Source: a virus
Virus record (IMG/VR): IMGVR_UViG_3300047496_000382
DNA: 64,000 nt
Reading direction: 5' to 3' (one strand)
Shown: positions 10,648 to 54,433 of the stretch, piece after piece
Layout: each line of letters begins with the position of its first letter
Numbering within the stretch: the first letter of the stretch is position 1
Position numbers and translations under genes: made by a program
The notes under the pieces: model-generated
What the model was told of the DNA's origin: nothing
The model's input: only the letters and a program-made list of their open reading frames with translations
Databases searched by the model: none

Positions 10648-11226
10648 TCAGTGAATCTTCCGATAGGCCGCGACCCGGCAACACCAGTCGATGAAGACGT
10701 CTTGCGCCATCGCATGCTTCATGAAGTTCACTGCGGGGTGCACCCACTGGACATTGCCCGGGATGTAACCCTTCTCGCTGTCAATGCGGTCAAGAGAAGC
10801 TACTGTTTCTCCCTCTGCGAGCGTCTTCTTCGTCATGCCGAGTGGTGCTCCGGTTAGAGCGCATCGGCGTCCTTGTTGTTCAAAAATAGACCACAGTGTC
10901 GCGGCCGTTACTGAGAATACAAATCCTCGGTGACGCGCCTGCGTACGAAGACACCCGTAACGATGCCCACTCAGGTGGCCCGCCGACGCGTACTTCGACC
11001 GGTACGTCCGTGTCTGCATTCGCGCGCAACCGCAAGACTGCGGTCCCTGTTCTACGCGTCTTGGCCTACGCCCTATAGTTGATGCGCGCTTGACTAGCTC
11101 CTTGCCGCACACGCAACGCACACGCCACATAACGTCACCGCGCGCGGCAACTTCACCCGTGGGGGCTAGCACCGTCAACAAGCCGATGACTTTTCCGGCC
11201 AAGTCCTTTCGGATGTTCGGCATCAA
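10648..11226 (-). CDS. Free-standing HNH-type homing endonuclease
   Basis: WRVRCVCG...SCGC N-terminus and CALTG...SLDRIDSEKGYIPGNVQWVHPAVNFMK; ATGA overlap with the RNAP stop. Confidence 0.85.
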   Translation of the reverse strand: MMPNIRKDLAGKVIGLLTVLAPTGEVAARGDVMWRVRCVCGKELVKRASTIGRRPRRVEQGPQSCGCARMQTRTYRSKYASAGHLSGHRYGCLRTQARHRGFVFSVTAATLWSIFEQQGRRCALTGAPLGMTKKTLAEGETVASLDRIDSEKGYIPGNVQWVHPAVNFMKHAMAQDVFIDWCCRVAAYRKIH

Positions 11227-14200
11227 TAGAAGTGCTCCGGCACATCCTTGAGGTGCCCGTAACCGGGTTTGCTGGCGTCCCTCTTCGTCAGACCTAGCTC
11301 GCTGCCGAAAGCCATGCCCGGGACAGGGTGCGTCCCGTGGATGTGCGACACGCCGCGCGTTGCCGCCGCCTCCATCAACGTCTCGCGAAGATGCCGGTGC
11401 TGCAACTTCGCCATCCAGTCTTCTTGCATCTCGAGAGGTAGAACTTCAATGCCTTTCAGCGTCGGCTTGTGTTCGATGGGCTTTTTGCTGGCTGCTATGA
11501 GCTCGGCGTTGAGCTTGTAGACCGTCGTCGTCGGGCGATACTCCCCACGAAGAACAGTCGGGTGGTCTCCAGAGTCCGTGACCTCGGTGAGATTCCCCAT
11601 CACGCGCACGATGGTCTCGATGGCGCGGCGCTTGATGCCCTCCTTCGCGTAGAGACCGTGAATCTCGTCGACGAGGTGTCCCTGCACACGCTCCATCGAA
11701 TTCGTCGCCTTGAAGAGCTGGCGCGGGTTCACGACGGTGCGGTTCGGGTCGGAGAGATGCTGACCTGCCTCGACCTGCATGCCGACGACGGGCGGCTGCC
11801 AGGGCATGTAGCCGCTGATGCCCCGCGAGTTGGGCAGCGCCGCGTGCAACGGCATCCCGCGCGCGTCGTTGCTGACGTGGTGACGCTTGCCGCCGACAAA
11901 GATGTCCACACCTGTCGCGGTCGGTTGAATCTTCTCGACCTTGCCGCTGACCATCGACAGCGTCGCCTCGTTCGGTACGTGCTCCGGCAGCATCAGCAAG
12001 TTCGAGAAGTGCTTGAAGGCGTTGACGACCTTCGAGCCGCTCGCCTCACGCACGCCACCCGTGTGGAAGGCCTTCAAGGTCAGCTGCACTGCGCGCTCAC
12101 CAACCGTGTGCGCCGAGAGAACGCCGATGTTGGTCCCGAGCGGATGCAGGTCTCCCGAAGAAGAAACTCCACTGCACTTCTGGCAGATGCCCTGCTCCTC
12201 CTCACACTTCAGCGGCGAACGAACGACGAGCCTGGCGTCCTTCTTGACCGACCGAATCTTACCCACGATGTCCGGTGTGAGCAGCGTGCCCGCCGGTACG
12301 TGCAGACCATCCTGGTCGAAGTCCTTCTGCAGGTAGCGGTCGTGAATGTCCCGCTCCTGCACCGACAGAGCAACGCCCTTATTGGTGCCACAATCGTGCT
12401 TAGTGATGAGCACGTTCATCATGTTCTGCATCAACAGCTTCGACATAACGCCGGGTTTCTCGACACCCTGGACCTTGAGGACTGCGCCCCGCCGCGCACC
12501 GTGCATCTGCGTCCAATAGCTGCCGAGGTCCAGACCCTCAGAGTAGCTCTTGGTGACCGGTGTCGGGATGTCCTGGTCAGCGGAGTCCTGGTAAATCATC
12601 GGGGCCAAGACCATCTGCTTGTACTGCTCCCAGCCCGGCTTCACGCCCGCGCTGTACATCGTGAAGAGATTCGAAGGGTCCTTCTTCATCTTCTCTTCGT
12701 GCAGCGTCTTCATCGTGTTGCCGGCTGTCTTGTAGACGTTGATGGCCTGGCGGTCCTTGTCAGCCTGCGGAATCTTTGTGCTCGCGTAGATGCTCGCGGC
12801 TTCGGCGTGCGCCGCCTTCAAGACCTTGTCGCGCGTCTCATAGTCTGGGGTGAAATCCTTGAGCGACAGCGTGTGCACCCCCGTGGGGACGAAGATGTTC
12901 TTGCTCGGGTCGTGCACGGCAACGTGCGTGTTTTCGAACTTCTGGAACGCGAAGGCATGGCCAGCGGCTGTGGGCAGCGGCAGGCGTACCGAGCCAGAGG
13001 CCGCGCCGTTGCCGATGTCCTTTAGCTTGTTCACGACGTCGCCGTAGAGCTCGTGATGGTTCTTCGCGAGCGTCGTCAGCATCGCGTCAAGCCCCTTGCC
13101 GTCGACCTTCGTGTTGAAGTCATGGAGATAGGTGTCCTGCATCTCCTTCGGCAGCGCAGCCGCGAGCATCACGCGCCCCGGCGTGGTTTTCTTCCCATCC
13201 AGCTCGACGACATCAGTCGACAGCAGATGACCCTTCTGGACGGCCTCGACAACCTGCGCCGGGTTCTTGAAGGTCTTCCCCGTCTCCTTGCCGACGAGCC
13301 CGAGCTTGTAGAGGCCGAGTGCCGACTCGAGCGTCGGCTGGTACATCACGCGCCCCGTCGCCTCGCTGAAGAGGTTGTTCGATGGGAACATCTTGTGGGC
13401 CTCCGCAACGGCCTCACGCGTGATGGGGACATAGGCGCTCATCGAGTCACCGTCGAAGTCGGCGGTGAATCCCCCAGTCACGAGCGGGTGAATCTGCACC
13501 GCGCTACCTTCGACACGACGCGCACGGAAGCCTTGCACCGAGTACTTGTGAAGCGCAGGGTCGCGCTTGAGTAGCACGGGGCGCTCCTCCATCACCCGGT
13601 CGAGCGCACGCCAGACCGAGGGCGTCGGCTTGGCAAGCAGCGCTGGTGCCTGCAGCTCCGTCTGGATGGCGCCCATCTCGCGCAGCTTCCGAATGACAAA
13701 GGGTCGATAGAGGCTGAGCGCTGCGTGACTCGGGAGTCCGACTTCATCGAGACCGAGCGCGGGCTCCGGCACGATGGTCGAGCGCATCGTCAAGTCCTGT
13801 CGCCGGTTGATGAGCACGCGCTGGAAGTAGCCACGCTTCGGCTGGCTTCCGCTGATTTGGTGCAGGATGCCCTTGAGTTTCTGCCCCTCGTACGGGATGC
13901 CGACGCCCATCAGCGCCTTCACGCCGTCGTAGAGACTCTCGCGAAGCTCTTGCTTGTGCGCGTCGTCAAGGTTCTGCGCGATGACCGGGTCCTTCAGCTT
14001 ATCGTTCACCTTCGCGAAGTCCGAGTAGAGCTTCGTGAGTCCCTCGAACTGAAGGTTGCCGTCGGGCAGCCGCGAGACCGCACGCAGCACGGGCGGCATC
14101 ACCGGCAGATTGTGCAGCACGTATGCGTCCGCCGGCTTGAGGTTCGCAGTGTCGAGCGCACGCAAGTACTTCACACGCTTCAAGACACTGTCGACCTTGT

Positions 14201-53303: not shown

Positions 53304-53954
53304 TCAGAAGCGAATCGTCCACGCGACCTCGAGCTGAAAAGCCGAGGTCTTACTGAGCGTATCGAACGTGTCGTAGGCGATGCCCGTGTTGTTGTACACG
53401 TTGGGATTCGCCACAGCTGTGACGAGAAGAATCTCGGACAGCGGCACCGTGAGGAACGGATTGTAGCTGACGTCCAGCTGCCCGAAGAGGCGACTGAAGG
53501 TCACCTGCGTCGACGTCACGTGCACCGGAGGCGCCTGCACCTGCCCGAGCCACACGTCTGGCGCGAGACCAGGATAGGGGGCTGAAGAACCCGAGATGCG
53601 CACTGGGCGTTCGAGACTGGTGACGGTTGGGTCGGTGTCCGTCTGGAGATTCGAGCCGGGGTACGCCGTGACGAGTGGCGGCGCGTTTGCTGTCGTGAGT
53701 GCGAGTTGCTGCGTCCCGCCGATGCCGAGACCCATGTACTTCACACGGTCGTTGCGCTCAGGAACGTCTGGACCGAACGACGTGTAGCCCAGCAAGCTCG
53801 CAAGGTACTCGCGCCCGAGATTGAGCCAGATGTTGTGGCCTTCACGCCGCTGGACAATCTTCCCGCGCTCGCGCGCGATGATGCTGAGGTTGTTGCGAAC
53901 CTCGATGTCCGTGGCGGTCGAGTAGCGAATGCCCCTGCGGCGTTTCGTCGTCAT
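53304..53954 (-). CDS. Tail/baseplate fibre-attachment protein
   Basis: NLGREYLA...YMGLGIGG...VTFSRLF...PLSEILL...FDTLSKT...LEVAWTIRF resembles N-terminal tail-collar domains. Confidence 0.6.
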   Translation of the reverse strand: MTTKRRRGIRYSTATDIEVRNNLSIIARERGKIVQRREGHNIWLNLGREYLASLLGYTSFGPDVPERNDRVKYMGLGIGGTQQLALTTANAPPLVTAYPGSNLQTDTDPTVTSLERPVRISGSSAPYPGLAPDVWLGQVQAPPVHVTSTQVTFSRLFGQLDVSYNPFLTVPLSEILLVTAVANPNVYNNTGIAYDTFDTLSKTSAFQLEVAWTIRF

Positions 53955-54433
53955 CAGACGCTCCCTTGCGCGAGTCTACCGAGTTCGTCGAAGAACGCCG
54001 AGAGCGACGCTCCGGAGATTTTGACGAGGGGCTTCTTCTCCGCCACCAGCGCCTTCAAGCGGTCGATGGGGACCTGCGAGATGGGCCCGAGGAACTTCGG
54101 GTCGTTGTAGTGCGCGAGGTAGAGCTTCTTCGCCTCCTCTTCGCTGCGTACACCCAAAATCACCTTGTCTTCGTCGTAACCCTTGCCGGTGTGCTTGTGC
54201 TGATGGACGACGAAAGCGTGCGGGGCGTCTTTCACCGGACCGACGTAGGCGTCTACTTCTTCTCCATCGGCACCGCGCGTTCCCTGGATGTAGCCGTAAG
54301 GCGCTTTCATCACGGTTCGCCACGGCTTCCCATCGCGGTCGACACCGGAGCGCACCGAGCCCTTCCGATTCTCAATGGCGATGCGTAGCCCTTGGTGTGT
54401 CGTGTGGCCGTGAAGTTTGTGCTCTTTAGACAT
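53954..54433 (-). CDS. Inorganic pyrophosphatase-like protein (InPase type) with C-terminal AFxDEL motif
   Basis: GLRIAIENRKGSVRSG...YGYIQGTRGADGEEVDAYVG...YDEDKVILG. Confidence 0.8.
   Translation of the reverse strand: MSKEHKLHGHTTHQGLRIAIENRKGSVRSGVDRDGKPWRTVMKAPYGYIQGTRGADGEEVDAYVGPVKDAPHAFVVHQHKHTGKGYDEDKVILGVRSEEEAKKLYLAHYNDPKFLGPISQVPIDRLKALVAEKKPLVKISGASLSAFFDELGRLAQGSV

Follow-up and report, generated by a model that had tools for sequence, protein, structure and literature searches.

A single-chain bacterial-type RNA polymerase, a candidate sigma factor and promoter pair, and a putative head-loading peptide in a 177-kb phage genome

Introduction

The phiKZ/AR9-like phages and N4 provide the classical picture of a phage polymerase that is produced late, goes into the head and enters the next cell by injection, sparing the early genes any need for host RNAP. 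In the phiKZ-like phages, which are without a sigma-70-family factor, an SF2 helicase is co-distributed with the RNA polymerase (RNAP) (PMC7824862). A further lineage encodes an RNAP of the bacterial type, and is described from the metagenomic 'mReC' RNAP-encoding Caudovirales of Weinheimer and Aylward (PMC7481178), a study that does not treat virions, sigma factors or promoters, and from Salmonella phage Arash (PMC10585845); neither paper describes promoters, the peptide tag discussed below, or a link between sigma factor, RNAP and promoter. Here, we describe a 64,000-nucleotide stretch, hereafter the window, of IMG/VR virus record IMGVR_UViG_3300047496_000382, which carries a single-chain RNAP gene among phage structural genes, together with genes for an SNF2-family ATPase and an InPase-type pyrophosphatase that a first-pass annotation had joined to the RNAP as one virion-delivered transcription machine.

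The window covers bases 32000-95999 of one 177,425-bp virus record with 62% GC, which is rated ~95% complete and was assigned a provirus class by its source; a codon-bias model yields 228 genes (g001-g228) across the genome. No known phage shows DNA similarity to this genome, and the best explanation of the window is that it is the core of a 177-kb phage belonging to the lineage that encodes bacterial-type RNAP, namely that of the 'mReC' phages and Arash. With these it shares a bacterial-type beta/beta' RNAP encoded between the portal and head genes and a genome size of ~180 kb, and with Arash also the word GGTATAAG and a set of homologous proteins, among them the sigma factor, the SNF2 helicase, the portal and capsid proteins, a protease-family protein and several further structural proteins. 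It differs in that the RNAP of Arash is split in two genes by an inserted block, that Arash has neither the AAFxDEL tag nor InPase, and that identity is just ~30%. In its putative packaging, the enzyme would resemble the virion RNAPs of phiKZ/AR9-like phages and N4; in contrast to phiKZ/AR9, there is one RNAP with fused, not split, subunits and no virion/non-virion pair, and in contrast to phiKZ-like phages generally, this RNAP is close to the cellular enzyme, which it matches strongly in Pfam, and has a sigma-70-family factor for company.

We lean towards the view that the genome encodes two overlapping systems, a transcription system built on its own RNAP and sigma factor, and a separate tag-based system for loading the head, of which the SNF2 ATPase and the InPase would be cargo. 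In the first, one fused RNAP and one FliA/WhiG-like sigma factor would read a clade-specific promoter, P1, placed before replication, nucleotide-metabolism and small early genes; late synthesis would put the RNAP and the sigma factor into the head together, and their injection would let the next infection start without host sigma-70. In the second, a portable amphipathic helix would mark about ten unrelated proteins that are to enter the prohead and be ejected afterwards, the cargo being SNF2, InPase, a probable ADP-ribosyltransferase (ART) and Gly-zipper proteins, which are domain kinds of the giant 'polyvalent' head proteins. SNF2 and InPase would then be general injected effectors that may aid early transcription, rather than obligate partners of the RNAP.

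The RNAP gene and the structural gene run

The genes that define the locus are as follows.

11223..17669, minus strand: single-chain beta-beta' RNAP g052, 2148 amino acids (aa), TTG start, with a longer open frame to 17804
3331..5142, minus strand: large terminase subunit (TerL) g045, by Pfam GpA_ATPase and tblastn to phage terminases
22279..24357, minus strand: portal protein g059, 30% identity to Arash portal gp204 (E 1e-77)
19201..21929, plus strand: MoxR-type AAA+ ATPase and DUF2201 metallopeptidase/VWA pair, by Pfam, between portal and RNAP

The RNAP open reading frame (ORF) is uninterrupted, with the Pfam beta domains preceding the beta' domains. Rpb2_6 (E 1.1e-62, 212.8 bits), Rpb2_3 (28 bits), Rpb1_2 (E 1e-24, 88.1 bits) and Rpb1_5 (E 2.9e-15, 56.9 bits) lie above their cut-offs, Rpb1_1 (22.4 bits) lies under its own, and the catalytic motif TADFDGD is intact at residue 1404. 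A tblastn search found no second RNAP in the genome (next best match E 0.13), and the phiKZ/AR9 pattern of a virion and a non-virion polymerase is thus not seen here.

The first-pass annotation had placed the RNAP gene upstream of, and co-directional with, spike, terminase and head genes, and this stands, with a weak match for the spike: the gene opens a minus-strand run of ~36 kb that holds the weak spike-like protein, TerL, the prohead protease g041, scaffold-like proteins and the major capsid protein g036. PHROGs gave no match for most of the head proteins or for the tagged proteins. Upstream of the RNAP lie the divergent MoxR/VWA unit and then the portal operon. Full-length fused RNAPs, 39-66% identical, occur in 34 viral contigs in which the order portal, MoxR/VWA, RNAP, g050, g048, g047, TerL is kept, and in Arash, too, the portal lies immediately upstream of the RNAP. 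The MoxR/VWA pair, a P1-driven unit whose position is conserved in 22-24 related loci, could serve as an assembly chaperone.

The block GCTACCCTG (17690-17712, minus strand), upstream of the start, is kept in five relatives without enrichment elsewhere, and may be an operator or part of the RNAP-gene leader. The word GnTACnCTG, conserved before the RNAP start in five relatives and present before two other genes here, was dropped as a late promoter because it is enriched neither near starts (4/46) nor in any genome (35 versus 39 in the control).

A sigma factor and a bipartite promoter

The constant partner of the RNAP is a sigma factor, which escaped the first-pass annotation because its gene, g205, lies outside the window. 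It is the one sigma-70-family gene of the genome, matching Sigma70_r3 above the cut-off (8.4e-10, 39.1 bits), with just 12.4 bits for region 2; its best NCBIfam family is FliA/WhiG (1.4e-10), at 41.3 bits far under the cut-off of 189.6. The protein is homologous to the Arash sigma factor gp10, and besides Arash, five of six near-complete relatives have a sigma factor (G002-G006; not found in G001).

The word GGNATAAG, correctly reported earlier as common to the non-virion units, occurs five times in the window against 1.7 expected, and four of the five copies stand at operon heads. All 15 copies in the genome have GCAA upstream at a fixed spacing of 16 nt, and the word is the -10 half of a bipartite promoter, P1, that reads GCAA-N16-GGnATAAGa. 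When a matrix of the 36-nt site was searched at 12 bits or more, with reversed sequence as control, 24 sites were found in the genome and three in the control. Intergenic DNA makes up 9% of the genome and contains 21 of the 24 sites, and every site is directed towards a gene, which in many cases begins 17-40 nt further down. Such sites stand before the MoxR/VWA unit, an XPB-like helicase with the replication genes, DnaB, ThyX and many small genes; the RNAP, portal operon, SNF2 unit, InPase operon and tail/tag cluster have none of the 24 in front of them. Sites in the window include the following.

17720..17755, plus strand: P1 (GCAA-N16-GGAATAAGA), pointing away from the RNAP gene, before the MoxR/VWA unit; both halves conserved in an alignment of five relatives
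28253..28288, plus strand: P1 before the XPB-like helicase/replication module, 33.1 bits
33256..33291, plus strand: P1 before DnaB-primase-PolA
46775..46810, minus strand: P1 before ThyX, lying inside the 3' end of g087

The same matrix gave 13, 11 and 12 sites in three whole relatives, against 0, 3 and 1 in their controls. In Arash, GGTATAAG occurs 26 times against four in the control, has an extended consensus, and is preceded at similar spacing by an upstream T-C-C/A-A; in the portal-RNAP region that was examined, the sites are restricted to the strand of the non-structural genes. The -10 elements of sigma-28 promoters are of the GCCGATAA type, and that of P1 resembles them, with a G at the position where sigma-70 needs a conserved T. 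Sites matching the sigma-70 consensus number nine in the genome, none of them intergenic, where simulations give 12-25, the consensus being a general bacterial one that may not be the host's. From these features of the promoter we infer that P1 is probably read by the phage's own holoenzyme.

Directly after the P1 site in front of the MoxR/VWA unit, a 42-codon ORF (17788-17916, plus strand) with a good ribosome-binding site would encode a very acidic peptide (…EEQQDDEDEPEEDLDEG…).

Is the RNAP carried in the virion?

Were P1 read by the phage holoenzyme alone, an enzyme would have to be there already at injection. As the RNAP gene heads structural genes and has no P1, the RNAP would be made late, packed and injected, and the virion of Arash offers a comparison. 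Mass spectrometry of Arash particles recorded 3516 spectra for RNAP part gp206, the most of any protein, 1210 for gp216, 467 for sigma factor gp10 and 1148 for helicase gp217, which puts RNAP, sigma factor and SNF2 ortholog among the proteins detected in greatest abundance, the RNAP ranking above the capsid protein (PMC10585845). Delivery of an RNAP holoenzyme by the virion is therefore plausible, and of the virion-carried, host-independent transcription machine proposed earlier, this part survives: a sigma-70-independent RNAP is probably in the particle.

Several observations pull the other way. We found no late-promoter motif. The sigma gene is apparently downstream of a P1 promoter and is not in a structural unit, and in the more distant RNAP carrier Vibrio phage D69 the -10 word is not enriched. 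The match to sigma-70 was judged by general bacterial rules. The RNAP has no AAFxDEL tag scoring above noise, as had already been noted from the sequence. Finally, the Arash proteome comprises 116 proteins, including ribonucleotide reductases, and its authors allow for carry-over of abundant enzymes (PMC10585845).

These points give some substance to an alternative in which the RNAP acts inside the cell and is not packaged, and in which host RNAP produces the first transcripts, perhaps guided by an alternative sigma factor of the host or by a phage sigma factor that has been injected. It draws on the missing tag, on a virion list in Arash long enough to hold contaminants, and on the apparent control of the sigma gene by P1; moreover, because the -10 core ATAA resembles host sigma-28 and sigma-70 elements, host holoenzymes are possible readers as far as sequence goes. 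We nevertheless regard it as unlikely, since every relative has its RNAP gene in the late structural region with no P1 before it, the intergenic DNA has no sigma-70-type promoter, the unusual -10 word, with G for the T of sigma-70, recurs in phages of very different hosts, and the RNAP is the top protein of the Arash virion proteome.

Should a packaged holoenzyme prove right, this lineage would offer the first example of an RNAP of cellular type that shares the particle with its sigma factor, with a promoter that can be read from the sequence, and host-independent early transcription could be tested in Arash, a cultivable relative.

A short peptide tag on unrelated proteins

The first-pass annotation had reported that head-type proteins share an AFxDEL peptide, and the case is stronger than was claimed. 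AF.DEL occurs 10 times in the six-frame translation of the genome, and a 14-residue matrix at 18 bits or more gives 10 genome matches, with one further weak match, and none in the reversed control. The consensus, AAFxDELxK[IL]A, is an amphipathic helix of 11-12 residues. In seven proteins it lies within the first 10 residues (g060, g087, the SNF2 ATPase g088, the ART-like g196, g214, g215 and g216); elsewhere, it is C-terminal in the InPase, and three copies are internal. Four carriers lie within the window, and are given here with g196.

24357..25931, minus strand: tagged protein g060, 524 aa, with a Gly-rich middle, directly upstream of the portal gene; tag MGAFRDELRKLAAG at 25866-25907
46794..47201, minus strand: tagged Gly-zipper protein g087, 135 aa; tag at 47145-47186, start overlapping the SNF2 stop
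47198..48664, minus strand: SNF2-family ATPase g088, 488 aa; N-terminal tag LAAFADELAKIAEV at 48608-48649
53954..54433, minus strand: InPase-type pyrophosphatase g095, 159 aa; C-terminal tag LSAFFDELGRLAQG at 53963-54004
Genome 150981-151640 (L006:10981-11640), outside the window, minus strand: tagged ART-like g196, 219 aa, with a predicted ADP-ribosyltransferase-like fold (Atlas template-modelling score, TM, 0.41-0.55)

The tag is also kept among relatives. In the regions flanking their RNAP genes it was found 10 times against none in the control, mostly in the pre-portal gene and in SNF2; the orthologous pre-portal gene is tagged in distant relatives too, the N-terminal tag of SNF2 is kept in two related loci (L025, L027) and in relative G009, and a degenerate form is recognisable in G001, including at the InPase C-terminus. 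A tag on the sigma factor was considered and set aside, g205 scoring at noise level and not being tag-like, with slightly tag-like N-termini in G003 and G005.

A close parallel is in T4, where a capsid targeting sequence is carried by the internal proteins IPI-III, and where Alt is processed, packaged and injected. What the two would have in common is a short terminal peptide, shared by unrelated proteins destined for the head interior and for injection, apparently ending at a prohead-protease site, a protease of predicted gp21 fold, and a cargo that includes an ADP-ribosyltransferase-like protein; the predicted fold of g196, which is a lead only, recalls Alt. The present tag differs in its sequence, in its additional C-terminal and internal positions, and in a presumed cleavage at K-T/I/L-A as against the L/I-x-E of T4.

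Loading of the tagged proteins into the head is likely. What speaks against it is that Arash has no tag, so its SNF2 protein reaches the particle, if at all, by another route. The tag could instead be a helix that docks onto some other partner (RNAP, MoxR/VWA pair or membrane) or a mere site for the maturation protease, and the Gly-zipper and membrane-like segments of several carriers, the three internal copies and the K-x-A ending, like that of the putative protease site, all fit such a role. We think this improbable: the carriers include a portal-adjacent protein and the InPase, whose relatives sit inside the prohead protease, a conserved amphipathic helix of 11-12 residues is more than a cleavage site needs, and the carriers, part enzymes and part small proteins of low complexity, form an assortment like that of T4's internal head proteins. 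If loading is indeed its role, the tag would be a short, portable signal for bringing foreign proteins into phage heads.

The prohead protease, its candidate cleavage site and the InPase

The protease and the gene next to the InPase are located as follows.

98..997, minus strand: protease domain of the prohead protease g041, whose gene runs off the window start
54437..58171, minus strand: large structural protein g096, 1244 aa, homolog of Arash gp14, with the InPase gene directly after it

The N-domain of g041 was modelled with a predicted local distance difference test score (pLDDT) of 87.3. Foldseek alone found no significant PDB match for the model, and a second structural aligner did; its matches include the protease of varicella-zoster virus (VZV; Z 8.7), T4 gp21 (Z 8.5; 131 residues, root-mean-square deviation 2.9) and that of pseudorabies virus (Z 8.2). 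The top 33 are all capsid maturation proteases, with no unrelated fold above Z 5.0. All of 51 sequences compared keep His118 and Ser174, which suggests that these two are catalytic.

The motif KTA[SAG] occurs 23 times against 4.3 expected (z 9.6) and is concentrated in head proteins, namely the scaffold-like g039 and g040 and also g062, the protease and g211; members of the protease family hardly vary in 'EKxA', around residue 30, or in 'GADKTAK', with which the domain closes. We take KTA[SAG] as a candidate cleavage site of the prohead protease, and the ending of the tag, K[IL]A[AGSE], resembles it.

The InPase bears on head loading from another side. Its match to PF18823 (1.5e-41, 141.8 bits, cut-off 26.8) covers profile positions 11-133 of 135. 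As first proposed, it does sit in a structural operon, directly after the gp14 homolog g096. Its matches in PHROGs are segments inside giant head, DarB-like and minor-head proteins, and elsewhere among phages its homologs frequently bear annotations as internal head, minor head or portal proteins. Among the relatives, it is present in all five that are at least 90% complete, and in eight of 10 overall. In two of them (G005, G006) it is inserted between the N- and C-domains of a g041-family protein (N-domains at E 9e-87 and 1e-81), and six of 44 long members of that family carry the insert. This insertion of InPase into the prohead protease is new here. Since the prohead protease acts inside the prohead, an InPase built into it would be delivered there. 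In another relative (G004), the InPase has a Gly-zipper tail similar to g087's, and in all three genomes (G004, G005, G006) KTA stands just before the InPase insert.

Polyvalent phage proteins, such as P1 DarB, were proposed by Iyer et al. in 2017 to be delivered with the DNA, the InPase domain among those packaged (PMC5512222). The SNF2, InPase and ART domain types of the present genome are those of such proteins, and the PHROG matches of InPase and SNF2 fall inside these giants. The difference is that InPase (159 aa) and SNF2 (488 aa) are here single-domain proteins, each with its own tag, and so are not themselves polyvalent; fused forms occur in relatives, with InPase in the prohead protease or joined to a Gly-zipper tail. 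Polyvalent-protein domains would then be delivered in three other formats within one clade: on their own with a tag, built into the prohead protease, or fused to Gly-zipper tails.

A bolder version would combine the two systems into a modular head-loading code, in which a helix ending in a K-x-A site marks at least ten proteins as a 'distributed' counterpart of the polyvalent proteins, and a co-injected, sigma-dependent RNAP holoenzyme with sigma-28-like promoters of its own, together giving transcription independent of the host from the first minute; this we put forward tentatively, as a possibility with less than even chances.

The protease family (2393 representatives) is often split by inteins at a CxxC, and in G003, at ~64.8-66.0 kb, a protease gene has an insert of ~1.2 kb at the CxxC, consistent with the inteins of most long members.

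The SNF2 ATPase and its relation to the RNAP

The SNF2 protein g088 exceeds the Pfam cut-offs for SNF2-rel_dom (46.4 bits) and Helicase_C (51.5 bits), with GSGKT and DEAH in the alignment. It is the ortholog of Arash gp217 (39% identity, E 3e-99) and matches phrog_62 at 1e-38, its closest PHROG profile being the helicase part of long polyvalent-type proteins. The earlier placement of the gene in a structural operon is not borne out in this genome, because its unit, g089-g088-g087, holds a small membrane protein, SNF2 and the tagged Gly-zipper protein, and no recognised structural gene. Relatives have the SNF2 gene adjoining portal or RNAP. In G009, it encodes a protein of 783 aa (L076:3476-5827, minus strand) in which a leader of 73 aa is followed by the tag, then by the ATPase and last by a Gly-zipper tail; this tail resembles g087, which in the present genome is a separate, translationally coupled gene.

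It is here that the proposal of one dedicated, co-packaged early-transcription machine has to be weighed, in which SNF2 would recycle or release the RNAP and InPase would remove pyrophosphate. The proposal has respectable antecedents, as Iyer et al. suggested a RapA-like role for the RNAP-linked SF2 helicase of phiKZ-like phages (PMC7824862) and the clearing of pyrophosphate for early transcription or replication by packaged InPase (PMC5512222). The gene order of some relatives also agrees with it: SNF2 lies less than 10 kb from the RNAP on the same strand in five related loci (L025-27, L031, L039), and in Arash the gene of the SNF2 ortholog comes straight after that of the RNAP C-terminal part, abutting it, and the two products have a similar abundance in the virion (PMC10585845). 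A helper role for SNF2 is accordingly possible in Arash-type genomes.

The comparison with known RNAP-associated ATPases is more equivocal. RapA/HepA and vaccinia NPH-I, the latter packaged with the viral RNAP, have an SNF2-family ATPase core, as g088 does, and NPH-I matches g088 among PDB sequences at E 5e-5. This similarity is confined to the C-terminal lobe, the PDB sequence search brought up no RapA at E 1e-3 or better, and g088 is a bare core without the RapA-type N-terminal domains, starting at about residue 20, right after the tag (RapA has ~970 aa).

The co-occurrence data speak against a single machine, as the three genes do not travel together. SNF2 is present in G005, G009, G010 and Arash and was not found in G001-G004 and G006 (89-100% complete) or in Vibrio phage D69, which leaves it in one of the five relatives that are at least 90% complete; InPase was not found in Arash or D69, and its homologs in 470 phage records are mostly from PB1-like phages without RNAP. 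The expected co-occurrence of the three genes across related phages therefore fails. The helicase of g088 has its best PHROG match in polyvalent-type proteins, and the Rad25/XPB-like type, whose co-distribution with jumbo-phage RNAPs was noted by Iyer et al., is here a separate, untagged and P1-driven gene:

28988..30730, plus strand: XPB/Rad25-like SF2 helicase g064, untagged, by NCBIfam XPB (3.3e-24) and rad25 (1.6e-13) and Pfam ResIII

RNAP, SNF2 and InPase as one kit is in consequence an unlikely reading, with SNF2 patchy in its distribution among relatives, and the lack of co-occurrence is a warning against reading plausible gene neighbours as one machine. The helicase g064 heads the replication module, and its type has been reported to co-vary with RNAPs in phiKZ-like phages.

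Terminator-like hairpins

The first-pass annotation had also described a word shared by the terminators, and CTAGCTACT indeed occurs in three exact copies, each directly after a hairpin and T-run:

22236..22279, plus strand: terminator-like hairpin, T-run and CTAGCTACT, between convergent units
44666..44705, plus strand: terminator-like hairpin, T-run and CTAGCTACT
45033..45076, minus strand: terminator-like hairpin, T-run and CTAGCTACT

These copies are a subset of a general signature of hairpin, T-run and CTAGC that is found at no fewer than 11 sites in the genome, and TTTCTAG is the most enriched intergenic 7-mer. As a signal for the whole clade, CTAGCTACT was rejected: by a strict count, a T-run with CTAG follows seven of 29 strong hairpins here and none in G001, G003, G005 or Arash. 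In the relatives, the hairpins carry a T-run with AGCC or AGCT in place of CTAGC.

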